Sequence record: AY587007.1
Length of the DNA stretch: 64,000 bases
Reading direction: 5' to 3' (one strand)
Origin: Escherichia phage T5
The translations under genes were made by a program, and so were the position numbers. Below are positions 1 to 64,000 of the stretch, piece by piece. The notes below the pieces were generated by a model, which was not told where the DNA came from, made no database searches, and was given only the letters and a program-made list of their open reading frames with translations. Positions within the stretch are counted from its first letter, which is position 1, and each line of letters begins with the position of its first letter.

Positions 1-72
1 TTCTTTGGAAGTGACTGGGTTTTTAAACCGCTTCTCAAGGCTTTTCAGGACTTTATTCGTCCTTCTCCAATA

Positions 73-411
73 ATGATTGTTGGGGTATCTTCATGGTTCT
101 CTGTCAGGAATGAGATGGAGAACGTTCAGATTATGACCGGGTTAGGTCTTATAGACCGTTTTCTTGGTACAACGGATTTTACTGGTGGTGGGCTATCTAG
201 GGGTAATTCTGTTCTTCGCTTCGTTGAAAAGCATAAGCTCAAACATTGGTGTGTGCTGGATGATGCTGGTGCTATGATGTATCAGTATCCAACGGTTATA
301 GTCAATGGTAGAACTGGAATAAATCTTCAAGATTTAAGAGCTGTTAGCTATATGTTAGAATTTAGTCCAGATCTTGAAATGTGTAAAGCCCTACAACAAT
401 TTAAGGTGTAA
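73..411 (+). CDS. hypothetical protein
   Basis: ORF of 112 aa in the same orientation as the early gene block; no recognisable motif; start uncertain. Confidence 0.4.
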   Translation: MIVGVSSWFSVRNEMENVQIMTGLGLIDRFLGTTDFTGGGLSRGNSVLRFVEKHKLKHWCVLDDAGAMMYQYPTVIVNGRTGINLQDLRAVSYMLEFSPDLEMCKALQQFKV

Positions 412-423
412 ATATGTTTAATA

Positions 424-843
424 ATGTATTCTCTAAAGAAGCTAATCCAATATTGGTTAATTTTTGGCGTACTGCTTCCAGCCAACCTGTACAATGAGGC
501 TATTAATGCTCTAAAAATATGGTGTGAGAATAATGAAATCTCCTTTGCTTTTAAAGGCGAGATTGAAGAAGCTCCCTGTATTGGTTTAATTGTGCAGGTA
601 GAGGATGGTCTTGAAGAGATTGTCGGCTGGAAAGAGTTAGATGAAATGGGCTTGGTTTTTGCATTAAACTATAAGCTGTTTATGCCTAATAAACACCGTA
701 TTGTTGTTAACTATAAAACCAGTGAATCTCCTGGCTTTCAAGTTAATGAACATTACGGTTGGTCTTACTCACCGGAAGAAGTAAATGATGGTATCCAAAA
801 ACTTCGTCGTTTTGGTTATCAAATTCCGGGTTTAACTGCCTAA
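424..843 (+). CDS. hypothetical protein (tandem paralog 1)
   Basis: 139 aa; shares motifs PCIG, MGL(V/I)xALN, LF(M/H)P and IPGL with the adjacent ORF 853-1245. Confidence 0.5.
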   Translation: MYSLKKLIQYWLIFGVLLPANLYNEAINALKIWCENNEISFAFKGEIEEAPCIGLIVQVEDGLEEIVGWKELDEMGLVFALNYKLFMPNKHRIVVNYKTSESPGFQVNEHYGWSYSPEEVNDGIQKLRRFGYQIPGLTA

Positions 844-852
844 GGAGGCACA

Positions 853-1245
853 ATGGAACAAATATATTGGCGTCAGATTGATCCTAGTTTGGTGAAGTGT
901 GCAGAGAAGCTGCTACAACGTTGGTTGGGGGTAAGACAAGCCTCCTTCACTTTTCCGGAGCAGCAAATAGACGATCCCTGTATTGGTGTTTTCCTATCAG
1001 GCTACGCTGGGGAATGGGAATTGGATTGGAATGAATTGTCTGCTATGGGTTTAATTGTTGCACTAAATTTCTCTTTGTTCCATCCACGTGGTTTGGCTAT
1101 ATGTCGTGTGCCTGATGATGGTTGTTCGCCCCATCTTTTACGGGTGGAAGATGATATTTGGGAGTACACTCCAGATACTCTCAAAGAAGCTAAAGAACAG
1201 TTAAACCGTGTTGGGATCTATGTTCCAGGCCTGAATGATGAATGA
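853..1245 (+). CDS. hypothetical protein (tandem paralog 2)
   Basis: 130 aa; GGAGG Shine-Dalgarno upstream; collinear similarity to ORF 424-843. Confidence 0.5.
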   Translation: MEQIYWRQIDPSLVKCAEKLLQRWLGVRQASFTFPEQQIDDPCIGVFLSGYAGEWELDWNELSAMGLIVALNFSLFHPRGLAICRVPDDGCSPHLLRVEDDIWEYTPDTLKEAKEQLNRVGIYVPGLNDE

Positions 1246-1336
1246 TTTTTATTAGCTGAACTCTGATTACCGAGTCATTTTGGCTCGGTTTTCTCTGTAC
1301 TCAAAGACACTGATAGCACCATCCGGAAAATTTTAC

Positions 1337-1365
1337 TTGCAGGATGCCCCAAATCTTGATATAAT
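1337..1365 (+). promoter_or_regulatory. sigma70-type early promoter (TTGCAG, 17-bp spacer, extended -10 TGaTATAAT)
   Basis: -35-like TTGCAG at 1337-1342 and TATAAT at 1360-1365, followed by the AT-rich motif ATTTATATTGAATTGAGAGA shared with the other early promoters. Confidence 0.5.
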
Positions 1366-1862
1366 ATTTATATTGAATTGAGAGACATTAGTAAAAATTG
1401 ATTTTGCTAATTTTTCTTGTTTACAATCCGCGATACGGAACAGTTAGGCTGCCCCATTAAGGGTTGTTTTAACTGTTACTAGTGTTTATATTGCATTAGT
1501 TAATATTCAATTAAGTGATCTGTGTACCCTGAATTCGGAAAGGTAAATCCAAACCGTGCATATTTAGCTCGTTATATAGGCAGAGTTTTATATGGGGGTG
1601 CGAACGAAAAGAGCAGCGAATGGCGGCACGTACAGTAGTCACCTACCAATAGGATAGTGAGGACAAATAGAATCGGCTTAGCGGCCAATGACCTAGGTTC
1701 TATTCTGTATATGAGCGAAGAGAGCACAGCACTGAGATATGATAACTTATTCATATTGTTTGATGATAATTGATGTTTACGTAAATAGTAGTAATAGTTG
1801 TTCTATTCTTTCTGAATAGTCCTAAAGAAAAGATTTCGATTAACCAACACAGGAGTATTGTT

Positions 1863-4649
1863 GTGTTTTCTATCCTCCAAGGTCACGCCGGATTTTCTCG
1901 TGATTTAGCAACAGGTATTTGGCGAGAAATCAAAGCGGAAGATTATACCTTTGCCAAGCGATTCTCGAAAGAGCATCCAGAAGGTAAACCAGCTTCTATG
2001 CCCTTCAAATTTGATGTAATAGAAGAGCACGACCCACAAAGCCTTGCCGAAATGTTACCCCTCATGAGACGTTTAACGTCTGACCCTCATATCGTTGCGG
2101 TGCGAGGTCGATGTCTCGCACCTAAAAATAATGTGCGACGTAAGAAAGGTAACTTTAATGTATCTAATCCTAGTAATATTATTGCTATGGACGTGGATGG
2201 TATCCTAGATACCGGTGGGTATGACAAATTTAATCTTGTTGGTATGGCCCGCCACATTATTAAGATGTTGAATAGTATTAGTGAGGATATGTTTCCTCTT
2301 GATGCAGGGTTTATTGCTCATGCATCGTCTTCGGCTGGGCTAAAACCAGGTATCCGAATGCACTTAATGCTAGAATCTAACGTCAAGGTAACTCAGGGTC
2401 AGCTAAAGTTCTTATTTACATCTATCAACGATAGTAGTAAGCAAAAATTTGGTTTTGATATTGCCGACCTAGCTTATTATTCATCTGTCCAGCTCCACTA
2501 TTTTGCCGACCCCTTATTTAGCGATGGTATTGTTGATCCGTTTAAAGCGGAGAGTAAGCCACGTCTGGTGTATGTTAAAGGTTCGAAAGTAAATTTGCCC
2601 AATAATCTGGTTGACTATGAAACAACTAGAGGGGAGTTTAAGGAAGAGTTTTATTCTTTACTTGATCAAATTAAAGGCAAAAAGATTGCTTCTGATAAAG
2701 TAGAAGAAACCATCAGCGAGTTAGAAGAGGCTGATGATGGAGTGTATTTGCGTATTATCCCCAAACTATACCATAGAGCATTAGAGGATGGTGTTGATTT
2801 TGCATGGCTAGAACGTGAGATTAAACCAGCTTTATCTGAATATATTGCAACTAAAGATAACAGTCGTAATATTCAAGATTACTTTAATAACGGTCGTAAG
2901 CAGGCTCTCAAAGCGTTTGTTAATAATTCTAAACGTGAGATTCCATTAAATCTGAAAGGTGTTCCACTTAAGAAATTAGAAGTGGATTCTCCACCAGAAG
3001 TTCCATACCTGAAGATTAACATTGTGCCCCCAAAAGGCCATATAACATTTGTTAAGGCAAGTCTTGGTACTGGTAAAACTACGGCAGTAACTAAATGGCT
3101 GGACGCAGGTGTTCTTCCAGGCAACTTTTTAGCAGTTACAAATACTAGAGCACTGGTATCTTCAAATGCCAAGAAATTTAGTGCAGGACAATACGATAAG
3201 TCTGTAGATATGCTCAACTTTAAACGTGGAGCTATCGATCGTATGTCCACAACTATTCACTCTTTGCATAAGTTCAAAAGTTTTATTGGGCAAATAGACA
3301 CCATTTTTATTGATGAATGTGACGCTGTAATGAATGACCTATTATTCGCCCCTGTTGTTAAACAACGTCGCGAGTGTATTCAAGTTCTACGTGACATCCT
3401 TATGACAGCTAAGACTGTAATCTTATCCGATGGTGATATTAGTGCTGAGACGATTGAAGCATATGGTTCTCTAATTGATTTTGATAAACCAGTAGCATTT
3501 TATAATCATCACCGTAAAATGCTGTCAAAAGCACACGCTTATGAGTTTCCTGATGAATCCAGTATTTGGGTTGCACTTCAGACTTCTCTAGAGATGGGTG
3601 AGAAATCTATTCTAGTATCTGATTGTGGCCCGGATGAGCTGAATGAGAAGGGTATGGCACTGCGTCGTAATACGGGTGCGTTAGTTAAGGAAATCCATTC
3701 AAACTCCACCTCAGATGTGGATATTCGACGTATTCTGGATTATACAACTAATGAGCTAATTGATCAACAAATTGATTGCTTATTATGTAGTCCATCCGTA
3801 ACGAGTGGCGTTGACTTTAACTATTTCGATAATGTGTTTGTTATTACTAGAACCAGTAATCAAGCGCCAAACATGCGTTTCCAAGCAATCAGGCGCGACC
3901 GTGGTGCCCAGAACATCTATTATTTTATTGATAAATCTACGAGTGGATTCTCTGCAGGTTCTGAGCAATATAATATTGATGAAGGTTGGCTGGAGTTAGC
4001 ACAGCAATTATACGCACGTCGTAGAGAGCTGGAATCTAGAAACTATACTAGTACCTTACGTTATTATTTGCTTGATCAGGGTGCAACTATTGATATTTTC
4101 AGCGAAAGCTGGGGAACTATTGAAGGTGCTGGTAAAGAATATACAGAAGAGCGAATCAAAGCTATTCTGCATTCAACTCCAGATTATTGTGCCCCACGTC
4201 ATGCAGATGCATATGAAGCTAAACTACTTCTTGTTCGCTATTATCATCTTGAGTCTATTAAAGATGTAACAGTTGAGCATGTCGAACAATATATCAAAGA
4301 TAAACCGAATGATCGAGCTGCATTCTTCCATAAGATGCACGAGATGTTCTGGGAAGATATTAAGAAGTGTTCAAATGTGACCATTAAACCATTCATAGAG
4401 GCTCTGAAAGGTAAGAAGAAAGACTTCTTCCTTAAAACAGGTCAGAGTGCCAACCCAAAATATGCTAGAATGTATCTTGGTATGATGGGTATTGGTAAGG
4501 ATATGAACACTGAAAATATTGTAGACTGGTACAGAACCTATTGTAAAATCGAGTGTATGCCAATTCCTTTCAAATTCATGACAGAGGAAGAGAGGGCTAT
4601 GGCAGAAGAAGTAATGTCCGAACTTGGAGCAACTAATGAAGATGCATAA
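1863..4649 (+). CDS. P-loop ATPase, putative replication initiation / origin-binding helicase-like protein
   Basis: 928 aa; GTG start with AGGAG 8 nt upstream; Walker A (GTGKTT) and Walker B-like (IFIDECD) motifs; position at head of replication module. Confidence 0.55.
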   Translation: MFSILQGHAGFSRDLATGIWREIKAEDYTFAKRFSKEHPEGKPASMPFKFDVIEEHDPQSLAEMLPLMRRLTSDPHIVAVRGRCLAPKNNVRRKKGNFNVSNPSNIIAMDVDGILDTGGYDKFNLVGMARHIIKMLNSISEDMFPLDAGFIAHASSSAGLKPGIRMHLMLESNVKVTQGQLKFLFTSINDSSKQKFGFDIADLAYYSSVQLHYFADPLFSDGIVDPFKAESKPRLVYVKGSKVNLPNNLVDYETTRGEFKEEFYSLLDQIKGKKIASDKVEETISELEEADDGVYLRIIPKLYHRALEDGVDFAWLEREIKPALSEYIATKDNSRNIQDYFNNGRKQALKAFVNNSKREIPLNLKGVPLKKLEVDSPPEVPYLKINIVPPKGHITFVKASLGTGKTTAVTKWLDAGVLPGNFLAVTNTRALVSSNAKKFSAGQYDKSVDMLNFKRGAIDRMSTTIHSLHKFKSFIGQIDTIFIDECDAVMNDLLFAPVVKQRRECIQVLRDILMTAKTVILSDGDISAETIEAYGSLIDFDKPVAFYNHHRKMLSKAHAYEFPDESSIWVALQTSLEMGEKSILVSDCGPDELNEKGMALRRNTGALVKEIHSNSTSDVDIRRILDYTTNELIDQQIDCLLCSPSVTSGVDFNYFDNVFVITRTSNQAPNMRFQAIRRDRGAQNIYYFIDKSTSGFSAGSEQYNIDEGWLELAQQLYARRRELESRNYTSTLRYYLLDQGATIDIFSESWGTIEGAGKEYTEERIKAILHSTPDYCAPRHADAYEAKLLLVRYYHLESIKDVTVEHVEQYIKDKPNDRAAFFHKMHEMFWEDIKKCSNVTIKPFIEALKGKKKDFFLKTGQSANPKYARMYLGMMGIGKDMNTENIVDWYRTYCKIECMPIPFKFMTEEERAMAEEVMSELGATNEDA

Positions 4650-5154
4650 ACCAATGCCTCCTATGGCATTTATCCTAGAAAAGCTTAGGTATGACGAAAG
4701 TACCGGGGACTTAATTTGGTTATCTGGCCCAAGGAAGGGAAAGGTGGCGGGCTCCAAAATGAAAACTGGAAGACAGTTAGAGTTTACGATAAATGGGGAG
4801 CGGACAGCTTACTTAGCCCATAGAATAATCTGGTTTATAAAGACAGGCGAAGATCCTGGGGATAAAACTATCGACCACAAAGACGGTGATAGTTTAAACA
4901 ACTTGTGGGATAATTTACGTAAGGCTACCTATTCCGAAAATGGAAAGAATAAGAAGTGTTCTACTAATTCTACCGGATTCACTGGAGTTGTAAAACGAGG
5001 TAATAGATATATGGCCTACGCTTACTGCGAGGGAAAGCAGCATATTTTTGGTAGACGAGATACCCCGGAAGAAGCCCATCAGCTATACCTTAGGGGAGTT
5101 AAAGAACTGTTTGGTGAATTTAATCCCTCGGAGAGATATGACAGTGAAGAATAA
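4624..5154 (+). CDS. HNH homing endonuclease with AP2-like DNA-binding domain
   Basis: 176 aa; HNH motif IDHKDGDSLNNLWDNLRKATYSEN; C-terminal AP2-like segment GFTGVVKRGNRYMAYAY; real start may be an internal Met since the ORF overlaps the upstream gene. Confidence 0.7.
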   Translation: MEQLMKMHKPMPPMAFILEKLRYDESTGDLIWLSGPRKGKVAGSKMKTGRQLEFTINGERTAYLAHRIIWFIKTGEDPGDKTIDHKDGDSLNNLWDNLRKATYSENGKNKKCSTNSTGFTGVVKRGNRYMAYAYCEGKQHIFGRRDTPEEAHQLYLRGVKELFGEFNPSERYDSEE

Positions 5155-5371
5155 AAAATGGGAAACAAGGAAGTTTCCAGTAAAAGAACGTAAAGTTCCT
5201 GTTTATGATACTTCGGAGAAGCTATGTAGGGTGGTACCGCACAGATTAGCTGGCATCCCTAACATATCCGAATGGTTACTTAAACAACGGAGGACTAGCG
5301 TATCCCTTCGCATAGGGTTTGAGTTAGATAAAGTATATGCTGAACTTTCTTCTTTGCTCAAAGAATCATAA
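5138..5371 (+). CDS. hypothetical small protein
   Basis: ATG at 5138 preceded by GGAG; trimmed from track ORF 5048-5371 whose 5' part overlaps the HNH gene in another frame. Confidence 0.3.
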   Translation: MTVKNKKWETRKFPVKERKVPVYDTSEKLCRVVPHRLAGIPNISEWLLKQRRTSVSLRIGFELDKVYAELSSLLKES

Positions 5372-5380
5372 AAAATTTAT

Positions 5381-5409
5381 TTGCTTTCAGGAAAATTTTT
5401 CTGTATAAT
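5381..5409 (+). promoter_or_regulatory. sigma70-type early promoter (TTGCTT, 17 bp, TGTATAAT)
   Basis: TTGCTT 5381-5386, TATAAT 5404-5409 with TG extension, then AGATTCATAAATTTGAGAGAGGAG and ATG at 5441. Confidence 0.55.
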
Positions 5410-5440
5410 AGATTCATAAATTTGAGAGAGGAGTTTAAAT

Positions 5441-6145
5441 ATGGCTGGTTCTCGCAGAAAGAAACATATCCATGAAATCCCGGATGAAGTCTTTAAAAAA
5501 GTTATAGAGCATCTGGAAAACGGTGGTACTAAGAAAGCAGCATGTGAAATGCTCGGCGTATCATCCAATCCAACTATGGAAAGGATGATTGAAGAGTGGC
5601 AAGACCGCCAGATTCAAGTTGCCGAAATGAAGAAAAAGAAACGTGGTACACTCATTGAAGGTATTGAGTTGGCCAACGTTATTGAACAGTATCTATCTGG
5701 CGATTCTTTCGAAGAGATTGCCGATCGTAATTACCGCTCTGTAGCAATGGTTAAATCTGTTCTGGAACGCTATGGTGCTCTGCTTCGTTTGAACGATATT
5801 GTAGATCCATTGAATCCACCAATTATTCCTGATGATGCTGTAGCAGAAGAATTTGAGGTAGGTGAGCTTGTTTGGGTTCCTGGATACCAGTGTATTGGTG
5901 AAATCAAAAAAGCAATGGATAACCCTGTTGGTTGTTACCGTGTTTGGCTTCTATCAGAAGGCAAACAACAGAACGTTCATTATATGAATTATGAGCTGGC
6001 CTCTGTTAAACACCTGGAAAAGTTAGGGGTTGATGTAAAATCTCTGGGGTATAAATGGACTCGGGAAGAAGTCATTACGTTGATTAACGAAGCTGTTAAG
6101 GCCGCCTTGAAACTTGATAAAGAAAAAGGAAAACGCCGTGAGTAG
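5441..6145 (+). CDS. hypothetical protein, possible DNA-binding
   Basis: 234 aa directly downstream of a strong promoter and RBS; N-terminal segment GGTKKAACEMLGVSSNPTMERMI is helix-turn-helix-like. Confidence 0.5.
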   Translation: MAGSRRKKHIHEIPDEVFKKVIEHLENGGTKKAACEMLGVSSNPTMERMIEEWQDRQIQVAEMKKKKRGTLIEGIELANVIEQYLSGDSFEEIADRNYRSVAMVKSVLERYGALLRLNDIVDPLNPPIIPDDAVAEEFEVGELVWVPGYQCIGEIKKAMDNPVGCYRVWLLSEGKQQNVHYMNYELASVKHLEKLGVDVKSLGYKWTREEVITLINEAVKAALKLDKEKGKRRE

Positions 6146-6389
6146 ACTAACTGATTTACTTAAAGATGGGGAAGTAAAAACACTATATCGTAGAAGCTGG
6201 GATAACGATAATAACGGCTTAGTGTTGCTAACTTTAGATGCTGACTCGGATGTAGCTACTCAGCATACCTGGGTAGCCGGTAATTATCCATATAGCGAGG
6301 TTGTTTCATTAACAGTATGCGAAGCTATTGCAGACGATTGGGAGGTTGCCAGCATTGAGGGTATGCTCGCTGTTGGCCTGGTGGAGTAA
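6114..6389 (+). CDS. hypothetical protein
   Basis: 91-aa track ORF; likely true start is GTG at 6139 preceded by AAGGA, overlapping the end of the upstream gene. Confidence 0.35.
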   Translation: MIKKKENAVSRLTDLLKDGEVKTLYRRSWDNDNNGLVLLTLDADSDVATQHTWVAGNYPYSEVVSLTVCEAIADDWEVASIEGMLAVGLVE

Positions 6390-6406
6390 CTACTTAAAAA
6401 TTTCAG

Positions 6407-6435
6407 TTGCTTAATCCTACAATTCTTGATATAAT
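6407..6435 (+). promoter_or_regulatory. sigma70-type early promoter (TTGCTT, 17 bp, TGaTATAAT)
   Basis: TTGCTT 6407-6412, TATAAT 6430-6435; a second TGTATAAT at 6462-6469 lies just upstream of the ORF at 6493. Confidence 0.5.
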
Positions 6436-6492
6436 ATTCTCATAGTTTGAAAGAACTATTCTGTATAATTCTTAATTAAGGAAATATAAAAT

Positions 6493-6903
6493 ATGACTAC
6501 TCCAACTCAGTGGACTGATGAACTGTTCGAAAAAATGTCTTCCGAATACGTTGCTCGTATGGAGCAATTCCCAGAGGATGAACGTCCGGGTGTTAGCATG
6601 GAAATTGTTAGCGAAATTGCCCAGGAAAATGGTGTAACTCCGAACGGTTTTCGTATGAAGCTGACTAAAGCAGGTTTGTATATTAAGAAAGCTGCTGGTT
6701 CTACTTCTAAATCTAGCGCATCTACTGGAGAAAAAGCTTCCGGTGGTTCTCGTACCTCCAAAGCTCAAGCCCACGCCGACCTTCGCGCAGCATTCTCTGA
6801 TGCTGGCTTAGCACCAGATTTTCTGGATGATGCAATTATCGACAAACTGACCGGTAAAGCGGCTGCTCATCTGGCAGAAGCAATCCGAGCTATCACTAAG
6901 TAA
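6493..6903 (+). CDS. hypothetical protein, codon-optimised, putative DNA-binding
   Basis: 136 aa; strong bias to E. coli major codons (CTG, CGT, GGT, GCT) unlike neighbouring genes; motif NGFRMKLTKAGL resembles the repeats in ORF 9629-10396 and in A2. Confidence 0.55.
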   Translation: MTTPTQWTDELFEKMSSEYVARMEQFPEDERPGVSMEIVSEIAQENGVTPNGFRMKLTKAGLYIKKAAGSTSKSSASTGEKASGGSRTSKAQAHADLRAAFSDAGLAPDFLDDAIIDKLTGKAAAHLAEAIRAITK

Positions 6904-6939
6904 TTTTAGATAAATCCACCAACAAAAGGAACTATAGCT

Positions 6940-7236
6940 ATGACTAAAGCTGAAATTATTGCACAGTGCGAAAAATTGGGTGAGTTTTATCTTCATTACG
7001 AGAAACTTCGTCAGAAAGGAACCACGTACCTTCAGGGTACAATGGAATTTGATCCGGCCCAAGATAAATATCTGGCTGAGCGTATTAAACGCGAACGTAT
7101 TCGTAAAGCGAAAGATGATGAAATCCTTGTCTTCTCTCGTACTAATGATAGCTTCCGTTTTATTCCTGTCGAGAAAGTCCGTCGTGTGACTAGCCTCCAA
7201 TCAGAGTTAGATCGTGCTTCTCCAGTAGGCCGATAA
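6940..7236 (+). CDS. hypothetical protein
   Basis: 98 aa, GGA-rich RBS region, same orientation as the early operon. Confidence 0.45.
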   Translation: MTKAEIIAQCEKLGEFYLHYEKLRQKGTTYLQGTMEFDPAQDKYLAERIKRERIRKAKDDEILVFSRTNDSFRFIPVEKVRRVTSLQSELDRASPVGR

Positions 7237-7286
7237 GAAAACAATTAGCCCCTATATGGGGCTTTTGGTGTATTGGGGATATGTAA

Positions 7287-7595
7287 ATGAGCGAACAGGT
7301 AAATCAAAACTATGAAGGACACGTTGATGACCAGTCCATCATACTTGGGGAGAAGGAGGGGGAACAAGTAAGATTAACAGTATCTGAATTTCGTGGGAAT
7401 CTATACATGGGTATTCGTTACTGGCTTCTTGATATTAATGATGAATGGTTTCCAACGAAATCTGGCTTCTCTTTTCCTTACACCCTAGAAACAACATCAC
7501 AGCTTTTCTATGCGTTTACACAGATTCTTAGCGAATCTGAGGTTTTACATGAAGTACAGAAACGAGCTGAAGAACTCAAAGCCAAGAATGCCTAG
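7287..7595 (+). CDS. PC4-like single-stranded DNA-binding protein
   Basis: 102 aa; segment LTVSEFRGNLYMGIRYWLLDINDEWFPTKSGFSF matches the conserved core of the PC4/YdbC fold (F-x-G-x-x-Y-x-x-IR-x-W ... P-T-K-x-G-x-S). Confidence 0.5.
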   Translation: MSEQVNQNYEGHVDDQSIILGEKEGEQVRLTVSEFRGNLYMGIRYWLLDINDEWFPTKSGFSFPYTLETTSQLFYAFTQILSESEVLHEVQKRAEELKAKNA

Positions 7596-7612
7596 TTCTT
7601 GGCTTTTTCTTT
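7578..7612 (+). terminator. rho-independent terminator
   Basis: 11-bp perfect stem AAAGCCAAGAA / TTCTTGGCTTT with 7-nt loop, followed by a T-run; overlaps the stop of ORF 7287-7595. Confidence 0.6.
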
Positions 7613-7622
7613 ATAAATGTAT

Positions 7623-7651
7623 TTGCTTTCAACTCAGTTTTGTTATATAAT
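7623..7651 (+). promoter_or_regulatory. sigma70-type early promoter (TTGCTT, 17 bp, TATAAT)
   Basis: TTGCTT 7623-7628, TATAAT 7646-7651, then ATTTATATAAATTAATGAGAGA and ATG at 7683. Confidence 0.55.
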
Positions 7652-7682
7652 ATTTATATAAATTAATGAGAGATATAAATAA

Positions 7683-8654
7683 ATGACTAATGTAAAAGAA
7701 TTTATTAAACGCTGTCAAGAAGCATATTATCAAGGCATGTCTTTAATCTCTGATGAAGAATATGATCGCCTGGTAAAACGCTTCCCGTTAGAGGAAGAGA
7801 TCGGGCCTAAGGGTGATATTCCACATCTATATCGTATGTATTCTTTACAGAAAGTTTACTATAACCGTGGTGATAAACCACCATTCAATCCTTTAGGTCA
7901 GGTGGAAACCGATAAGTTAGATGGTTGTGCAATTTCTCTGCTATATATTAACGGCGAATTTGTTCAAGCATTAACCCGCGGTAATGGTATTCTGGGGAAT
8001 GATGTCACAAGCAACGTAAGATTGCTGAACATTCCTAAAAAGATTTCCCAAAAAGTACCTACTCAAATCACTGGTGAAGTTCTAATTACAAAAGAAGTAG
8101 AAAATAAACGTAACTTTGCCTCTGGTGCTATTAACCTCAAAGATAGCGATGATTTCGTACAACGTATCGGGGAAGGTGGTTTAATCTTCGTTGCATACGG
8201 TATCCAGTGTTCTGCTGAATCTGTAGGTATTACAGAAGCATATTTAAAAGATATGCTTTGGCTAGAGAATGAGAACTTCTTAACAGTTGTTAATGTGCGT
8301 TCCTTCTTTAAATGGATTCCGACGGACGGTAAAGTTGTTCGTATTAATGACAACCACCAATTCTTCCGTGAAGGCTGGACTAATAAATTCCCTCGTGGAG
8401 CATTCGCTATTAAAGAGGATGAAGAAGGCGAGATTACAACTCTTACTAAAGTTGAATGGCAGGTAGGGGCTTCGGGTAAAGTAACTCCAGTTGGTTATTT
8501 TGAACCGGTAATTATTGATGATGCTACAATTGTTAAAGCAACTCTTAATAACGTTGATTATATTAACTCTCTCGATCTAGAGATCGGTTGCCAGATTCGA
8601 GTGATTCGTGCTGGTGGTGTAATCCCGTGCATAGTAGAGCGAGTATACGATTAA
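7683..8654 (+). CDS. NAD-dependent DNA ligase, N-terminal part (adenylation and OB domains)
   Basis: 323 aa; adenylation motif KLDGCAISLLYINGEFVQALTRGNG (KxDG) and OB-domain end IRVIRAGGVIPCIVERV are collinear with bacterial LigA. Confidence 0.8.
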   Translation: MTNVKEFIKRCQEAYYQGMSLISDEEYDRLVKRFPLEEEIGPKGDIPHLYRMYSLQKVYYNRGDKPPFNPLGQVETDKLDGCAISLLYINGEFVQALTRGNGILGNDVTSNVRLLNIPKKISQKVPTQITGEVLITKEVENKRNFASGAINLKDSDDFVQRIGEGGLIFVAYGIQCSAESVGITEAYLKDMLWLENENFLTVVNVRSFFKWIPTDGKVVRINDNHQFFREGWTNKFPRGAFAIKEDEEGEITTLTKVEWQVGASGKVTPVGYFEPVIIDDATIVKATLNNVDYINSLDLEIGCQIRVIRAGGVIPCIVERVYD

Positions 8655-8704
8655 TACATAACCCTTTGCTACCCATCTACCATATCGGAATTATAAAGTG
8701 GTTA

Positions 8705-8733
8705 TTGACATTTTCGCCGCTTAGGTATATACT
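8705..8733 (+). promoter_or_regulatory. sigma70-type promoter (TTGACA, 17 bp, TATACT)
   Basis: Consensus -35 TTGACA 8705-8710 and -10 TATACT 8728-8733 in the gap between the two ligase ORFs. Confidence 0.45.
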
Positions 8734-8797
8734 ATTATCATTCAGTTGAGGGATAGAAAGTTATGGCGAGGGTAAGCCAAGTTAGTTAAAATTGTAG

Positions 8798-8826
8798 TTG
8801 CTAAATGCTTAAATACTTGCTATAAT
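8798..8826 (+). promoter_or_regulatory. sigma70-type early promoter (TTGCTA, 17 bp, TGcTATAAT)
   Basis: TTGCTA 8798-8803, TATAAT 8821-8826, then ATTTATATAAATTGATAAGGAAG and ATG at 8854. Confidence 0.55.
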
Positions 8827-8853
8827 ATTTATATAAATTGATAAGGAAGAAAT

Positions 8854-9636
8854 TTGATGAAAATCGAAATTCCAACACAATGTCCCTCTTGTGGTTCTAA
8901 GCTAGATCTTGTCAACGGACAATTATTCTGTCGTAATAAGTCCAACTGTCCAGCGCAATCAAGTAAGTTAATTGAGAACTTCTGTACAAAAATGAAGTTA
9001 AAGGGCTTTGGCCCGAAAACTATTGAGAAGCTGGAGCTGACGAAGATTTCAGAACTATTTTACCTAACCGAAGAAGATTTGGTTAGAGCCGTGGGTAGCA
9101 AGGTTGCCGCTAAGTTAATTAGCGAATTAAATACTAAAGTTCGCGGAGACATTGACTTTGGTTCAGTTCTCGGTTCTTTAGGAATCCCTCTAATTGGAGA
9201 GGTTGCAGCAAAGAAATTATCCCAAAATTGCACTAGCTTTCAAGATGTGAAGGCTGACGGCAAGGCTGGAGAAAACTATAAAGCCTGGCTAAATTCCCCA
9301 CAAGGCAAGGATGTAATCGAATTACCGTGGAAATTCTCAAAGGGTATTAAGGGTGCTAAAGCTGAGGTCATCATCACTGATGGTCTAGTAGCCCAGCCAA
9401 ATGGAATCACGGTGTGTATTACCGGATCTTTGCAAGATTTTGCAAATCGAACGGATGCAACAAACTATTTAGAAGGTCTAGGATATACGGTTAAGAAATC
9501 CGTTACCAAAGACGTCAAATGCCTAATCTGTGAGGATGAATCGAAGCGTTCTTCCTCATCTTATAAGAAAGCCGAAACGAATGGGATAGAAATCCTGTCG
9601 ATTAAAGAACTATTGGAGAAAAATAATAATGTCTAA
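8854..9636 (+). CDS. NAD-dependent DNA ligase, C-terminal part (Zn-finger, HhH, BRCT)
   Basis: 260 aa; Cys4 zinc finger CPSCGSKL...CRNKSNC at the N-terminus, helix-hairpin-helix-like middle, BRCT-like C-terminus ITGSL...DVKCLICED; collinear with the C-terminal half of LigA. Confidence 0.75.
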   Translation: MMKIEIPTQCPSCGSKLDLVNGQLFCRNKSNCPAQSSKLIENFCTKMKLKGFGPKTIEKLELTKISELFYLTEEDLVRAVGSKVAAKLISELNTKVRGDIDFGSVLGSLGIPLIGEVAAKKLSQNCTSFQDVKADGKAGENYKAWLNSPQGKDVIELPWKFSKGIKGAKAEVIITDGLVAQPNGITVCITGSLQDFANRTDATNYLEGLGYTVKKSVTKDVKCLICEDESKRSSSSYKKAETNGIEILSIKELLEKNNNV

Positions 9637-10396
9637 ACTGAACTGGAACGTAGAAGGTGTAACCGAGTCTCTGAAAGCAAAAGCCACTGCTCTGGGTGTT
9701 GATGTAATCTCTCAAGAACAAGTAGCTGCTATCGCTGCTGAACTGGCTGCTGAAACTGGCAAAGACGTTACCGCTCGCTCTGTTGGCTCTAAGCTGCGTA
9801 AAGAAGGTTTCGAAGTACAGAAAGCTAACGAAGTACAGAAATCCCCGTGGACTCCTGAGCAGGAAGCTGAACTGGTTGATTTCCTGAACGCTCATGCTGG
9901 TCAGTATACTTATGCTGAAATCGCTGCTGCTGTAGCTGGTGGTCAATTTGGTGCTAAGCAGGTACAGGGTAAGATCCTGAGTCTGGAAATGACAGCATCT
10001 GTTAAGCCGACCGAAAAAGCTGCCGCTGTTCGTTCCTTCACTCCGGATGAAGAAACTGACTTTGTTAATCAGGTTGTTGCTGGTGCTACTATTGAAGCTA
10101 TCGCTGCTCACTTCGGTCGCAATATTAAGCAGATCCGTGGTAAAGCTCTGAGTCTGCTTCGTGAAGGTCGTATCGCGGCTATGCCGGTACAGGAAACTTC
10201 AAGTGCTAAAACTCGTGAAGATCTGCTAGAAGGTCTGGATCTGGTTAACATGACCGTTGCTGAGATCGCTGAGAAAACTGGTAAGTCTGAGCGTGGTGTT
10301 AAATCTATGCTGTCTCGTCGTGGTCTGGTTGCTAAGGACTATGATGGTGCCGCTAAGCGTGCTAAACTGGATGCAAAAGCTGCGGCTGCTGAATAA
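9629..10396 (+). CDS. repeat-containing putative DNA-binding protein (abundant early protein, possibly D5-like)
   Basis: 255 aa; four internal repeats (e.g. TARSVGSKLRKEGFEV, GAKQVQGKILSLEM, KQIRGKALSLLREG, VKSMLSRRGLVAKD); very strong major-codon bias suggesting high expression. Confidence 0.5.
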   Translation: MSKLNWNVEGVTESLKAKATALGVDVISQEQVAAIAAELAAETGKDVTARSVGSKLRKEGFEVQKANEVQKSPWTPEQEAELVDFLNAHAGQYTYAEIAAAVAGGQFGAKQVQGKILSLEMTASVKPTEKAAAVRSFTPDEETDFVNQVVAGATIEAIAAHFGRNIKQIRGKALSLLREGRIAAMPVQETSSAKTREDLLEGLDLVNMTVAEIAEKTGKSERGVKSMLSRRGLVAKDYDGAAKRAKLDAKAAAAE

Positions 10397-10413
10397 TCTG
10401 GTAAATTAAACCT

Positions 10414-20120: not shown

Positions 20121-21939
20121 GACACTAAAATTTAGTAACGTTATGTCTTACGGTAAGGACATCGTAATTCATTTCGATAAGAATCCAGTTACTCAACTAA
20201 TTGGGGGCAATGGGCTAGGGAAATCCACCATCGCTACGGTTATCGAGGAGTTGTTTTATAACAAGAACTCTCGAGGTATCAAGAAGGATGCATTGTTCTC
20301 TTGGAATGCCCCTAAGAAAGAATACGATATGCACGCTTACTTCTCAAAAGATGAAGATGAGTATGAATTGCATAAAGTAGTTAAATCAACTGCTAAAGTT
20401 ACACTCATTAAGAATGGAGAAGATATTAGTGGGCATACGGCAACCCAAACATATAAGATGATTGAAGAGATTATGGGTGGTGACTTTCAAACATTCACCA
20501 AACTAATTTATCAATCAGTGGGTTCCAACCTAGATTTTCTAAAAGCAACGGATGCAACACGTAAGGCTTTTCTTGTTAACTTGTTCAATCAAGAGCAATA
20601 CAAAGAAATGTCGGAAACTATTAAGGCTGACCGTAAAGAAATAGCAAATACCTTAAATAATTTGCAGGGCCAGATGGCTGTAATTACGAAAATCCTTAAT
20701 GGGAAAAATAATCTAGGAACTTTGCAGGAACCTGTAGAAGTACCGGAGTTTGATGAAGAGCCATTAGCACAAGAACTTACTGAATCGAAAATTAAGGCGG
20801 CATTAGCCAAGTCTCAAGAGGCTAATATTACTAAGTTGCGTAATTTGGACAAAGCTGTACAAGTTGCCGAACAATCTTTCGAACCTTTCAAAAATTTGCC
20901 CGCGCCCACCGACCAAAATGAAGAGATCTCGAGTGTTACGCGTGACCTAACGATTGTGACCTCACGTGCGAGCGAAGTTAAGAAACGTTATCAGAAGTTC
21001 AAGCAAGAGGCTTCAAATACTGAATGTCCTACTTGCGGTACTCATCTGGATACAACTGCTGCTCAAAAAGCCATGGATATGGCTAGAGTAGAATATGATC
21101 CTCTGTTCAAAGAGAAGCAATCTCTTGAAGCTAAGCTAGAACAGTTGAAGAAAGAACAACTTGAGTACGTTGCGTATACTAGAGCAAAGGATGCTTTGGA
21201 TAAAGCAGTGGTAGCTAGAGACGAGTTCAAAAATTCAATGAGTGATGCTTCTTTTGAAGAACTCAATGTGCAAATCCTACAGGTGCAAATCCGACAATTA
21301 GAGCAGGAAATCGCTGATGGCCGTTCTAAGGTTGCAATTGCCAAAGAGCATAATGCAACTGTCGAATTAGCCAATGCAAAATATAAAGCAAAGCTAGAAC
21401 AGATTGAGAAAGCAGAAGCAGAAATGACTGAGATTACCTCCAAACTGGATGGAGTATCAGAAGCTGTTGCTGATCTCGATATTCTAATTGCTGCATTGAA
21501 AAATCTGGTGGGGTATAAACTAGAGCATAGTGTGAAAGTATTTGAAGAGCTAATTAATAAATATCTTTCTATTATGACTGGCGGTAAATTCGCACTTGGA
21601 TTTGAACTTGATGAAACAAAATTACAAGTAGTAATCTTCAATGATGGAAATCGTACCAGTATGGAGAACTGCTCTACTGGTCAGCAAAGTCGAATTAATC
21701 TAGCAACCCTGTTAGCTATTCGGATGCTGTTAACATCTATTAGTAAAGTTAATATTAATCTTCTATTCCTTGATGAAGTAATTAGCTTTATTGATACGAA
21801 AGGACTTGATACTCTCGTTGAACTATTAAATGAGGAAGAAAGTCTAAATTCTATCATTGTTTCTCATGGGCATACGCATCCATTAGCTCATAAGATTACT
21901 GTCAAAAAAGATGCAGAAGGATTTTCCTACTTAGAATAA
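20101..21939 (+). CDS. Rad50/SbcC-like ATPase with CxxC zinc hook (D13-like)
   Basis: Start taken at ATG 20101 (MSKITIK), overlapping the upstream gene; Walker A GGNGLGKST, coiled-coil middle with ECPTCG hook, C-terminal LLFLDEV Walker B/D-loop. Confidence 0.85.
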   Translation: MSKITIKTLKFSNVMSYGKDIVIHFDKNPVTQLIGGNGLGKSTIATVIEELFYNKNSRGIKKDALFSWNAPKKEYDMHAYFSKDEDEYELHKVVKSTAKVTLIKNGEDISGHTATQTYKMIEEIMGGDFQTFTKLIYQSVGSNLDFLKATDATRKAFLVNLFNQEQYKEMSETIKADRKEIANTLNNLQGQMAVITKILNGKNNLGTLQEPVEVPEFDEEPLAQELTESKIKAALAKSQEANITKLRNLDKAVQVAEQSFEPFKNLPAPTDQNEEISSVTRDLTIVTSRASEVKKRYQKFKQEASNTECPTCGTHLDTTAAQKAMDMARVEYDPLFKEKQSLEAKLEQLKKEQLEYVAYTRAKDALDKAVVARDEFKNSMSDASFEELNVQILQVQIRQLEQEIADGRSKVAIAKEHNATVELANAKYKAKLEQIEKAEAEMTEITSKLDGVSEAVADLDILIAALKNLVGYKLEHSVKVFEELINKYLSIMTGGKFALGFELDETKLQVVIFNDGNRTSMENCSTGQQSRINLATLLAIRMLLTSISKVNINLLFLDEVISFIDTKGLDTLVELLNEEESLNSIIVSHGHTHPLAHKITVKKDAEGFSYLE

Positions 21940-39788: not shown

Positions 39789-40684
39789 TATTTTCTTTCT
39801 CCAAAGAAGTTTATTTCTACAGGGTCTGAATCAGCAGTAGGGATTACGTCATACTCTACCTGATACAAATCTGAGAAGTTTAGGCGTTTTGAAATACGTG
39901 CTAAAGGGAATGTTATAGAAACATATTTATTTTTAATAATTAGTGGAGTTCTTGTTTCAGGATCTAGATTCAAGAACTTATCTCCTACCAATCTCTTAAC
40001 ATAATAGAAAGCTAGCGTTGCGGAAGCATTCATCTCATTGACATAAGCTCGTTTATTAGTATAAATTTTATTTATATCAAATATATTTCTATCTTCTCTC
40101 CAAGAACATTGTTGCTGGAAAGACATAGATGCTGAAATTAGCGCTGGCAACGGAGAGCTATTAGTGTACACAGCAGGAGCGCTATATGGAAGAACTTCAC
40201 CCTGTGTAATTGTATATCCATCTCGGAAAGTAGATACTTCAGAGAATTTTCCAGACTCAATACCAACATTTAGGATCGGTATACTCTTATCTAGAGAAAA
40301 ATCAACTGTTGATACATAACAGTTTTCGAAATAAATACAGCTATTATTATGATTAATAATATACATATTGAACATAATAGGTTCAATATTGGGAGTATTT
40401 CTTGGCAAAAATAAAGAATTTCCCTCACGCGTGAATCCCATCCAATCAAAGAAGTTAGATTCAATAAGCGTAGTACTGAAATTTATTGCCAATGAAATAG
40501 ATGAAGGATCTTGAGCATTAATAATAGAGTCTGCATAGTTTGTACGATTATGAATAGTACGTCTAAGAGTTTTAAACTCTTGAAAAGACGTACTAGCGTC
40601 ATAGTTAGAGAGGGCATCGAAATGATACCCTCTACCGTCATACTCAATAACTATTTTAGACTCTCGCATGAGAGAATAAAACAT
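39788..40684 (-). CDS. hypothetical tail protein
   Basis: 298 aa immediately downstream of the tail tube gene. Confidence 0.4.
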   Translation of the reverse strand: MFYSLMRESKIVIEYDGRGYHFDALSNYDASTSFQEFKTLRRTIHNRTNYADSIINAQDPSSISLAINFSTTLIESNFFDWMGFTREGNSLFLPRNTPNIEPIMFNMYIINHNNSCIYFENCYVSTVDFSLDKSIPILNVGIESGKFSEVSTFRDGYTITQGEVLPYSAPAVYTNSSPLPALISASMSFQQQCSWREDRNIFDINKIYTNKRAYVNEMNASATLAFYYVKRLVGDKFLNLDPETRTPLIIKNKYVSITFPLARISKRLNFSDLYQVEYDVIPTADSDPVEINFFGERK

Positions 40685-53984: not shown

Positions 53985-54719
53985 TTACGCAACTTTTAAT
54001 TTCTCAATATATTGTTGCGGGCTGCAACTATATTCTGCGCGTTCTTCTTCGGTCATACCTTCCCAACATAATTGCAGGCGGTCGGCTAGGAACTGATAAT
54101 CATTATCATCCTCAAGAGATTCATCAATAAAGGTTTCACCTATCAATGTCACGCCGATTGATAGAATATCATTAACGGCTTGTGCGTCCAGCGTTTTAAA
54201 TCCGTATGACGCTGCCGCTGATAGCACGCCTTTATGATCATCAATCATTGTAAAATCAGCGTTCGGATATAATTGTTTGAATAGCCCAAAATAGTAACTT
54301 TTATAAACTGCGTCTTTGCTGTGGTATATCTCGCTAACTTTATCAGCCTCAAAATATTTGTGTAGTGTATCGCGGGAAAATACACGGATATTACTATCAC
54401 CACGACCGCGCAACCCTTGTTTACGCAAATAATAATAGTCCGACTTGCTCATTAGTCGAGCGGTGCAAATAATGTTTAAAGTATTTGCGTCATTCATGCA
54501 CTGGCGCATATATGTAACAAGGGGCAATAGTGTATCTTGCATTATTAAATCATGTTTGCAGGCTTCATTTTTATACTTATTTAAATCTAAATTGCCCTCG
54601 CTATCAAAGCAAGGCGCTACACGATGAAACGAATTAATGATAGTGCCGTCCAGATCCCAAATCATGACGCGGGAAATATGCGGGAAATTACGGGTAATAT
54701 TCGTTTTAACTTGATTCAT
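53985..54719 (-). CDS. dmp: HAD-family 5'-deoxyribonucleotidase (Dmp-like)
   Basis: 244 aa; HAD motif I IWDLDGTII near the N-terminus; first gene of the minus-strand pre-early block. Confidence 0.7.
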   Translation of the reverse strand: MNQVKTNITRNFPHISRVMIWDLDGTIINSFHRVAPCFDSEGNLDLNKYKNEACKHDLIMQDTLLPLVTYMRQCMNDANTLNIICTARLMSKSDYYYLRKQGLRGRGDSNIRVFSRDTLHKYFEADKVSEIYHSKDAVYKSYYFGLFKQLYPNADFTMIDDHKGVLSAAASYGFKTLDAQAVNDILSIGVTLIGETFIDESLEDDNDYQFLADRLQLCWEGMTEEERAEYSCSPQQYIEKLKVA

Positions 54720-59329: not shown

Positions 59330-59714
59330 AATCATAACCTGATTTACTAACACTTTTGTTACTAGTAGGATCTTTAACTATAGCGCGCAAATAGTTTCTT
59401 CCGGTTATTATCAACTCTAGAACCATTATAATAGATATGCTTAGGCAACTTATTAGCACGGTTACGATCATTATGATCGATTGTTAGATTGCTATCAATC
59501 TCACCATTAAATAATACCCATATTATTCTATGCACTGCGTATGTTCGCCTGCTAACTTTACTCGATAGTAACCTGTGTTACTATAATGCCCTGCAATATC
59601 ACCCACCTTACTATTACCTTTCTGTACTTTCCATCTTAGAAATGATGGGGATGTTTCATCATAATAAAAGTTATCATTAGCAAGCGAATAATCTATATCT
59701 TTAAATAGACCCAT
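59330..59714 (-). pseudogene. decayed HNH-type homing endonuclease remnant
   Basis: Track ORF 59523-59714 has a homing-endonuclease-like N-terminus (ETSPSFLRWKV...GYYRVKLAGEH) and stops early; an HNH-like segment (LTIDHNDRN...RVDNNR) continues in another frame at about 59390-59520. Confidence 0.45.
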
Positions 59715-59883
59715 TGTTATAGTTTCCTTATGTTATTAATTTAATCTCTATTATATTATATCAAAACCATTAGCAAACTACCTAATGAGTTTTTCAGGTT
59801 TAATTAGCAGACTCATAATCACTTTAAAATCCTATTAGCCAACTAACTATATTTTGTTATATAATAACTGCATAAATTAGTTA

Positions 59884-60013
59884 GTGAGAAACACTATCAT
59901 TTAAGTTATCCACAGCCTTATACATTTTGTAAATTAACTTGACACAATAGGAAGGCTTTATAGCACTTTTACACAGACTTATCCACAGGTTATTCCACTG
60001 TATAAATATACAG
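59884..60013. repeat. left arm of a ~130-bp inverted repeat pair (two DnaA boxes plus an SOS-box-like palindrome)
   Basis: TTATCCACA at 59906-59914 and 59979-59987; CTGTATAAATATACAG at 59998-60013; outer and inner segments are near-exact reverse complements of 63193-63322. Confidence 0.75.
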
Positions 60014-60277
60014 GGTAAATGGAAGACATATTATAATGATGCCCAAAATAAGCGGCCTAAAACGCTTTCTAACGAGCCAAACGCTATAGGGTAATATTAA
60101 AGTAAAGCCTCACGCGTCGCCTGGTGGCTTCGCCGTGTTTTGCTCTTTACTATACCGCTGCGCGGTTAGCATAAAACTAGGCGCTAGGCAAGGAAAATAA
60201 AAAGGTAAAATAATATTTGCCTATGCTAGAAAATTACCTTTATCATTCACTCACCGATTAACGAGGGAGGCCAACAA

Positions 60278-63049: not shown

Positions 63050-63055
63050 TAACCG

Positions 63056-63078
63056 ACGGGGATCAGCTCCCCGTTTTT
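63056..63078 (+). terminator. rho-independent terminator closing the small-gene operon
   Basis: ACGGGGA-tcagc-TCCCCGT hairpin followed by TTTTT. Confidence 0.65.
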
Positions 63079-63192
63079 CACGCCTCCAGTTAAATCCCCC
63101 TTTGTTTTAGTATCCCCATCAAAATTAAACGCGTTAGAATGCGATCTAGGACGTTTTAGGCATATATTAGAATTATTCACTGCGTAGGAATA

Positions 63193-63322
63193 CTGTATAA
63201 ATATACAGTAGGATAACCTGGGGATAAGTCTGTTGATAACGCTTCAAAATGGCTAGGATTTTGTCAAGGCGAATCGTGCTGTTGATAAGTCTGTGGATAA
63301 CTTAAATAACAGTGTTTCTCAC
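63193..63322. repeat. right arm of the inverted repeat pair (DnaA boxes plus near-consensus SOS box)
   Basis: TGTGGATAA at 63292-63300; TGGGGATAA at 63219-63227; TGTTGATAA at 63231-63239 and 63280-63288; CTGTATAAATATACAG at 63193-63208 within TACTGTATAAATATACAGTA (63191-63210). Confidence 0.75.
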
Positions 63323-63327
63323 TTCCG

Positions 63328-63491
63328 TTTTTAAATACGAATCATTATCATTCGTATTCCGCTTTTTAAATGAGAATCATTCCGCTTTTTAAATGAGAAT
63401 CATTTCACTTCCTGAATAGTTCTCATTCCCTTTCTTAAATGAGAATCATTATCATTTGCATTTCACTTTTTAAATGAGATTGATTCTCATT
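63328..63491. repeat. array of five direct repeats of ~19 bp (TTTTTAAATGAGAATCATT)
   Basis: Copies begin at 63328, 63363, 63386, 63431 and 63467 with spacings of 23-45 bp; two copies extend into palindromes. Confidence 0.75.
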
Positions 63492-63543
63492 ATCATTCGC
63501 ATTCAGGCGAGCAGGCAATTGCCCTGCGCTTTTGTGCAAATCC

Positions 63544-63766
63544 GACATTTGCCCCCATGGATTACGCGTGGGCGTGTATGTGCAAATCCGACAATTTTTG
63601 GTAGTGTGCGAATCCGACCCGAAAAATTTTTATAGTGTGCAAATCCGACAATGAATTTTCCCAAAAACTCCAGCAATCACGAACTGCGTTCGAATCCTGT
63701 GGAATTAGCTAGAGTATGTGCAAATCCGACATGTGTTGAGATGTGCGAATCCGACAAGATTTTTGT
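63544..63766. repeat. array of six to seven direct repeats of 14 bp (GTGC[A/G]AATCCGAC[A/C])
   Basis: Copies at 63544-63557, 63590-63603, 63616-63629, 63647-63660, 63728-63741 and 63753-63766, plus a degenerate copy near 63689-63700; all in the same orientation. Confidence 0.75.
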
Positions 63767-63769
63767 GAC

Positions 63770-63960
63770 TTCGATGGGAGGGTGTGTGATTGTATGGGTT
63801 TGAGGGGAAGATGAGAGAGCGAGAGAAATTTGGGAGGCTAGAAGGATATGGGCGCAGGATTGGTGCGGAGCACCTGATTTGCGGGGATTTTGGGGAAGAG
63901 TTGAGATAATTTGGGAAGATTTGAGATAGGTGCAGAAAAAGTAAAATTTTATTAGCTAAA
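63770..63960. other. purine-rich, cytosine-poor tract with short TTTGGGA(A/G)G / TTTGAGATA repeats
   Basis: Plus strand is almost entirely G/A/T over ~190 bp; the minus-strand track ORF here is a low-complexity artefact. Confidence 0.5.
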
Positions 63961-64000
63961 GGGGGCAAAATAGCTTGACAAGTGAAAATTTCTGTGGATC

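Follow-up and report, generated by a model that had tools for sequence, protein, structure and literature searches.

The window analyzed here is a stretch of 64,000 nucleotides that covers the right ~64 kb of the genome of Escherichia phage T5. Window positions 40000 to 63997 align with positions 97670 to 121747 of the T5 record AY543070 at 99.9% identity, and position 64000 is the physical right terminus of both the genome and the terminal repeat. In AY543070, the terminal repeat has a left copy (1 to 10219) and a right copy (111532 to 121750), and window positions 63100 to 63997 correspond to left-repeat coordinates 9318 to 10216, again with 99.9% identity. The AY543070 features over this stretch are the injection stop signal (iss; 9140 to 10149), the terminal repeat, and a major DNA single-chain interruption. 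An earlier note on this DNA had proposed that two adjacent repeat arrays, here called family A and family B, belong to an iss at a terminal-repeat boundary, and the 99.9% identity to T5, the position under the annotated iss, and the end of the window at the genome terminus bear this out. In the alignment to the published iss and boundary sequences, the repeat-bearing stretch falls inside the annotated 9140 to 10149 interval, and the annotated right terminus places the arrays beside the repeat boundary. The lytic-conversion lipoprotein gene llp/lpp (AY543070 110429 to 110662), estimated in the note to lie ~10 kb away, is located ~10.5 to 11 kb upstream of the arrays.

Three differences between the window and AY543070 were observed: an indel of ~60 to 80 bp in the repeat at 59450 to 59464, one G fewer in a hairpin stem at 63511 to 63527, and a change in the last three bases at 63998 to 64000 (GGATC versus GGCTC). 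These suggest a T5 record or isolate other than AY543070, of the AY587007 type with a 10,139-bp repeat.

The arrays are not newly found. Davison (2020; bioRxiv 10.1101/866236) described a "Repeat Region 3" at positions 9194 to 10409 of AY587007, comprising an IRD'-spacer-IRC' structure with DnaA boxes, two 66-bp DRE copies, four DRC copies, and nine DRD copies, and attributed the first description of the repeats to Heusterspreute 1987 and Wang 2005. The repeat nomenclature used here (IRD', IRC', DRC, DRE, and DRD) is taken from that work. The features that characterize the iss are present in the window: paired DnaA boxes lie in the IRD'-spacer-IRC' structure, DRE/DRC and DRD repeats follow, and the 7.9%/99.5% nick is there as well. 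It is virtually certain that the element is the known T5 iss/Repeat Region 3, in its right-repeat copy. Both families, which the earlier note had held to be not identifiable from sequence, already have names at the descriptive level, family A being DRC/DRE and family B being DRD. The features of the locus are collected in Table 1.

Table 1. Features at the right end of the 64,000-nucleotide window (window coordinates; a dot marks features to which no strand is assigned)
Feature	Position(s)	Strand	Remarks
Rho-independent terminator closing the pre-early operon; left edge of the noncoding block	63054..63078	+	Annotated at AY543070 9275-9296
LexA/SOS-box-like palindrome TACTGTATAAATATACAGTA, left edge of IRD'	63191..63210	.	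One mismatch to TACTGTATATATATACAGTA; kept in 20 loci
Right inverted-repeat arm (IRD'-spacer-IRC' of Wang/Davison)	63193..63323	.	Partner 59883-60013
Four DnaA boxes in two pairs, 3 bp within pair	63219-27, 63231-39, 63280-88, 63292-300	-	Conserved in relatives
Family A array	63316..63486	+	DRE1 63316-63382, DRE2 63420-63486; five DRC-type units
GC-rich hairpin followed by TTTT, terminator-like	63511..63533	+	3' side is the nick motif CCCTGCGC; conserved in Markadamsvirinae
Major single-strand interruption	63529..63530	-	Between AAAA and GCGC on the minus strand; AY543070 9748^9749 and 121279^121280
Family B array (DRD 1-6)	63533..63755	+	63533-46, 63579-92, 63605-18, 63636-49, 63717-30, 63742-55
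Distal half (ATTACG) of the bipartite nick motif	63561..63566	+	
G-rich, GC-skewed spacer, from B6 to the terminus	63770..63930	+	GC skew +0.59 to +0.65; sequence poorly conserved
Conserved terminal block with TTGACA (63975-63980)	63935..64000	+	Right genome end at 64000

These features form a conserved noncoding block of ~1 kb that extends from the last pre-early terminator to the terminal-repeat end. The stretch has no annotated coding sequence (CDS) in the T5 reference, in agreement with its description as ORF poor in the earlier note, and coding potential was rejected on this ground and on that of copy-number indels among relatives. Two other candidate explanations were also rejected: for a structured RNA or known RNA family, just two subthreshold Rfam matches were obtained (E = 0.3 to 0.56), and for promoter or operator arrays, promoter-like matches were not commoner than in shuffled sequences.

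The inverted-repeat arms pair as 39- and 41-nucleotide segments that are 88% to 92% complementary. One of the four DnaA boxes is perfect and three have one mismatch; all lie inside the right arm, near the arrays as the earlier note stated, and the partner arm, at a distance of 3.3 kb, has the same pairs of boxes.

Family A (TTTTTAAATGAGAATCATT) has five matches with 0 to 2 mismatches in the 64-kb window, starting at 63328, 63363, 63386, 63432, and 63467 (extent, 63328 to 63485). Only ~0.13 matches are expected by chance in 64 kb, and none of 100 shuffles reached five, so that the five copies reported earlier are confirmed far above chance; the array was also recovered by repeat finding and TRF. 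The units, which partly form palindromes, are nested in two 67-nucleotide copies (DRE1 and DRE2) that are 82% identical. Their core is a 7-1-7 palindrome, TGAGAAT-N-ATTMTCA, and their spacing is irregular (35, 23, 46, and 35). The first-step shear point calculated by Davison (2020), 9618, lies within DRE2 and converts to window position ~63479.

Family B, TGTGC(A/G)AATCCGAC, is represented by six exact copies, and the exact TGTGCRAATCCGAC copies start at the six positions in Table 1, all on the plus strand. When up to two mismatches are allowed, eight matches occur in the window, where 0.48 would be expected, and a count of eight was not attained in any of 100 shuffles. Six or seven copies had been listed at 63544 to 63766; six are exact, whereas the putative seventh (~63686 to 63699) retains the AATCC core only, and the array is real, although the earlier start lies ~11 nucleotides too late. 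The spacing is again irregular (46, 26, 31, 81, and 25). The claim that the stretch is AT rich holds for family A (29% GC) but not for family B (43% to 47% GC). Outside the array, the window has only one further family B pair (21267 to 21295, with one mismatch each), and the family is absent from T5 between 13.2 and 58 kb. That pair lies in the D13 (SbcC-like) CDS, where tandem family B-like 14-mers 15 bp apart encode a VQI(L/R)Q repeat and are probably coincidental. One further exact B copy was seen at T5 position 12153, in the T5.019 CDS; many relatives have conserved it, ~1.8 kb rightward of the array.

A profile built from 95 family B sites of 11 phages gives a 14-bp asymmetric motif with 1.2 to 2.0 bits at every position, flanked by sequence that is almost uninformative apart from a weak T tract 5 to 7 nucleotides downstream. 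These sharp bounds and the asymmetry look like the signature of a sequence-specific protein-binding site. Because of the bounded 14-bp motif of family B and the 7-1-7 palindromic core of family A, both families would resemble, as judged from sequence, arrays of sites for sequence-specific DNA-binding proteins. A comparison by eye of family B with CRP, Fis, IHF, Tus/Ter, and marbox sites gave no convincing match.

Direct repeats combined with DnaA boxes are known from replication origins such as those of pSC101, P1 (oriR), and lambda (ori). The earlier note offered an iteron-type origin as one of its readings. In such an origin, an initiator bound to the repeats would start replication within the terminal repeat with the help of the DnaA boxes and the AT-rich DNA. 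The direct repeats do adjoin four DnaA boxes and a 29% GC stretch, but their irregular spacing shows no helical phasing, the AT-rich stretch coincides with the family A array and would not be a separate unwinding element, and the same DnaA-box pairs are found in the partner arm 3.3 kb away. Nor was a Rep-like gene found nearby: Pfam searches of 10 terminal-repeat ORFs detected no domain save one DUF and thus no DNA-binding or Rep-like domain. Davison (2020) considered an origin role of the DnaA boxes unlikely because the T5 origins are near the genome center and the replication genes are not on the first-step DNA. The origin reading is hardly credible on these grounds.

The LexA SOS box has the form CTGT-N8-ACAG, and the Fur 7-1-7 motif is TGATAAT-N-ATTATCA. 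The palindrome at the left edge of IRD' has 19 of the 20 nucleotides of the SOS consensus and recurs in the partner arm (59996 to 60015); the only other CTGT-W8-ACAG in the window is this inverted-repeat partner (59998 to 60013). It was found in 20 of 20 T5-like loci, among which the AT-rich center alone flips (AAA versus TTT), and the promoter-like matches that overlap it, on the minus strand, are all weak (9/12). In the family A array (region 63435 to 63494), three positions match the 19-bp Fur consensus GATAATGATAATCATTATC at 15 or 16 of 19 nucleotides. Three sites within 3 to 4 mismatches were obtained in 0 of 2,000 composition-matched simulations. Of the 14 positions that the 15-bp Fur 7-1-7 motif specifies, the sequence TGAGAAT-C-ATTATCA (63440 to 63454) agrees at 13. 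Most relatives have a Fur-like site with 2 to 4 mismatches, and three relatives have only sites with 5 to 6 (13 to 14 of 19 matching). A Fur-like resemblance of the family A type was also seen at 54089 to 54113, inside a dmp-like ORF.

Such sites could turn the block into a landing pad on the first-entering DNA, where host LexA, DnaA, and Fur would be recruited or titrated, thereby anchoring the DNA or perturbing host regulation. The retention of a near-consensus SOS box in all 20 relatives, the Fur-like matches, and the conserved DnaA boxes are in keeping with this proposal, as is the suggestion by Davison (2020) that membrane-bound DnaA is the brake. However, the family A core TGAGAAT-N-ATTCTCA carries a symmetric G/C where Fur has T/A, which suggests a different specificity, and some relatives offer only the Fur-like sites with 5 to 6 mismatches. 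Moreover, a single DNA copy per cell cannot titrate abundant regulators, and the sites do not overlap credible promoters. A landing pad of this kind is very improbable, and the LexA-like and Fur-like sites are leads only. Neither LexA nor Fur is mentioned by Davison (2020), and our literature search found no relevant paper on either, including none linking LexA to T5.

The major single-strand interruption in the window is the 99.5% nick of the right repeat, whose left-repeat equivalent is called the 7.9% nick. It falls between the two arrays, at the 3' foot of the conserved hairpin and 3 nucleotides before the first B copy. Four distinct major nick sites have in common the sequence CCCTGCGC, at the end of which the nick lies, plus (A)TTACG 30 to 32 nucleotides downstream. 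Written as CC[CT]?GCGC-N30-32-TTAC[AG], this bipartite motif occurs at 63523 to 63566 and 20899 to 20940 in the window and at 22330 and 39740 in T5. On both T5 strands, the second element accompanies 5 of 36 CC[CT]?GCGC sites, which are exactly the five annotated major nicks, with the pattern having been derived post hoc; since it was drawn from the same sites, the bipartite consensus is best regarded as a lead. Family B was rejected as a nick recognition element, because the 7.9%/99.5% site is the only one of the four distinct major nick sites that contains it. A link between family B and the 64.8% nick was also rejected, as the pair in D13 lies 364 bp from the annotated nick with no GCGC nearby.

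In Salmonella phage Seabear (position 8522) and Proteus phage Stubb (position 11415), the terminal repeat predicted by PhageTerm ends exactly after CCCTGCGC, which is independent, read-based evidence of a strong strand end at the nick. The repeat lengths of these two phages are probably undercalled by ~0.5 to 0.75 kb, the nick having been taken for the terminus. Read-based terminus callers can thus confuse the major nick with the terminal-repeat end in T5-like genomes.

Relatives of the stretch were found in 545 deposited phage genomes. An alignment of 12 nonredundant loci was made from Tequintavirus, Epseptimavirus (saus132), Klebsiella T5-like phages (Roth39 and an IMG/VR contig), and Pectobacterium phage My1, a member of another subfamily. 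The earlier note had allowed for the repeats not being conserved in related phages; both the arrays and the order of the modules proved to be kept across T5-like genera. The modules always follow one another as LexA-like palindrome, DnaA pairs, family A, hairpin plus CCCTGCGC with the major nick, and co-oriented family B, and this order is retained in three lineages beyond Tequintavirus, namely, Epseptimavirus, the Klebsiella T5-like phages, and My1. The copy number of family A varies among the aligned relatives around a conserved core, TG(A/C)GAAT-N-ATT(A/C)TCA. Proteus phage Stubb, whose A1 protein is 42% identical, has a reduced, single-unit version of the block that consists of the LexA-like palindrome, DnaA boxes, one perfect TGAGAAT-G-ATTCTCA, CCCTGCGC, a single B-like unit (TGTGCGTAATCGAC), and TTACG. 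As Stubb has no more than these single units of the A and B types, multiplicity is not universal. In Shigella phage SHSML-45, an insertion of ~600 bp with an annotated homing endonuclease separates family B copies 3 and 4, and HNH genes also lie under the match in Salmonella phages MET_P1_179_112 and SE3. As viable relatives carry such insertions inside the B array, its spacing is not critical.

The left-end context of T5 would also fit a different kind of role for family B. There, six B copies lie inside the repeat (9752 to 9961) and three outside it (10305, 10340, and 10477), so that repeated motifs are present on both sides of a fixed end, and the repeat end (10219) falls in the 344-bp gap between the inner and outer copies. 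The spacing of 46, 26, 31, 81, 25, ~343, and 35 (a 6 + 2-3 layout) recurs in ~30 T5-like loci, and all B copies are co-oriented. The end itself, between GCTTGACAAGTGAAAATTTCTGTGGCTC and TAAAAAC, is inside a block that is conserved as far as My1; the repeat end annotated in My1 has the homologous position, and this is also where the genomes of several isolates stop. The bracketed arrangement is kept in Markadamsvirinae, the Klebsiella types, and My1. Stubb has instead two inverted TGCAAATCC cores ~250 bp before its own TTGACA block.

Short repeats at genome ends are familiar from packaging systems: in P1 pac, 4 + 3 hexamers flank the cut, in T7, arrays of short repeats lie beside the terminal repeat, and lambda cosB contains R sites. 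By analogy, family B, and perhaps the whole block, might be mainly a signal for genome-end formation or packaging. Co-oriented sites would then bracket the place, on the right-hand edge of the terminal repeat, where terminase cuts the concatemer, and the right copy would gain a direct function. The first-ejected end is generally the last packaged, and since the left end of T5 is ejected first, packaging should start at the right end; the direction in T5 is taken from this general rule. Against a packaging role, the left repeat boundary, which must be cut too, has no B motif nearby, and Stubb has no bracketing array, its two cores being oppositely oriented. In addition, the bracketing in the other phages is inherited synteny and not independent recurrence, and homing-endonuclease genes occur within the B array in some relatives. 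We consider a function mainly in packaging possible, if on the whole unlikely.

Several further observations were made around the repeat end. The genome end is located 20 bp after the conserved TTGACA, and beyond the end, in the context of the left copy, a GGGCCTTCGGCCC hairpin follows; the two may be halves of a promoter that the terminus divides, or else belong to the signal for the cut. ATAACCGCCCT(CCCT/GTAT) repeats adjoin the repeat end, with conservation that extends from T5 as far as My1 and Stubb. The G-rich tracts that precede the two repeat boundaries were dismissed as a common cut signal, as the left tract overlaps the annotated CDSs T5.161/162.

Among the possible roles of the arrays, we rank first that of protein-binding sites in the pausing and restarting of DNA transfer, acting in the left copy, and we see the probabilities for and against this candidate role as close to balanced. 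The right-hand copy cannot act as the first-step stop because the right repeat enters the cell last. The injection-stop reading of the earlier note thus stands with respect to the region and the boundary but not as a function of the copy on which it was made. In the proposed mechanism, the block would act in cis. In the left copy, the arrays, the DnaA- and LexA-type sites, and the nick would assemble a nucleoprotein or structural obstacle at the place where transfer pauses after ~8% of the genome. The side already in the cell would carry family A and the host-factor-like sites, and the side still in the tail would carry family B, which would be the first DNA met at restart under A1/A2. The right copy would exist through duplication of the repeat at packaging, with any use of its own at genome-end formation. 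Taken together, a right-repeat iss block and an obstacle mechanism of this kind in the left copy are, in our judgment, rather probable.

Interruption-deficient T5 mutants reportedly still transfer their DNA in two steps, so that the nick alone would not be the signal. The assignment of the iss in the literature is positional, from shear mapping at ~7.9%. Pauses of T5 ejection in vitro were reported to coincide with the nick positions (review PMC2771126), and these pauses, along with the location of the first major nick exactly between the arrays, count for the pause-site reading. So do the conservation of the module order, the information-rich 14-bp motif, and the scarcity of family B elsewhere in the T5 DNA scanned, whereas the insertions within the B array of viable relatives and the single units of Stubb count against it. 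The DnaA-membrane model of Davison (2020) "assigns no role" to the many repeats, and two papers from 2026 describe the iss as a repeat- and palindrome-rich noncoding region whose mechanism is still poorly understood.

A more specific form of the transfer-control reading would be a composite switch. A host-factor pad composed of the LexA box, the paired DnaA boxes, and the 7-1-7 array of Fur-family type would brake on the cell side, and the bipartite, sequence-specified nick would be a second, separable part. The polar 14-bp array would serve both transfer restart and packaging initiation; a single conserved protein of the phage, either A2 or a terminase subunit, would bind it, and it would bracket the concatemer cut. 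This joint reading, put together from sequence patterns, is improbable as a whole. In the papers that could be searched, we encountered neither a LexA-like or Fur-like reading nor any mention that the repeat end is bracketed or that the nick motif is bipartite.

How T5 stops and restarts transfer after ~8% of its genome has been a question since the 1960s, and the rediscovery of an annotated element leaves that unchanged. The added anatomy narrows the targets to a 14-bp site and a 7-1-7 palindrome, with LexA, Fur, and DnaA as candidate host factors, and gives the DRD array a concrete alternative role, namely, in packaging.

Compared with known systems, the locus resembles the origins of pSC101, P1 (oriR), and lambda (ori) in having direct repeats beside DnaA boxes and AT-rich DNA but differs from them in its irregular spacing and the lack of an adjacent initiator gene, and the T5 origins are elsewhere. 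The putative LexA site is like the SOS box at 19 of 20 positions but is overlapped by no more than weak promoter-like matches; family A differs from Fur operators in its symmetric G/C, which the relatives have kept, and its sites do not lie at credible promoters. Lambda cosB, P1 pac, and T7 share with the locus co-oriented short repeats on both sides of a fixed, end-forming cut, whereas the T5 repeats lie 86 to 245 bp from the cut and have no counterpart at the other boundary, the role of terminase here being putative. The closest match is the T5 iss/Repeat Region 3 (Heusterspreute 1987; Wang 2005; Davison 2015, 2020), with which the locus shares its position in the repeat, the DnaA boxes, the DRC/DRE and DRD repeats, the major nick, and 99.9% identity; compared with the left-end region, the window copy is truncated by the genome end and therefore has six of the nine DRD copies.
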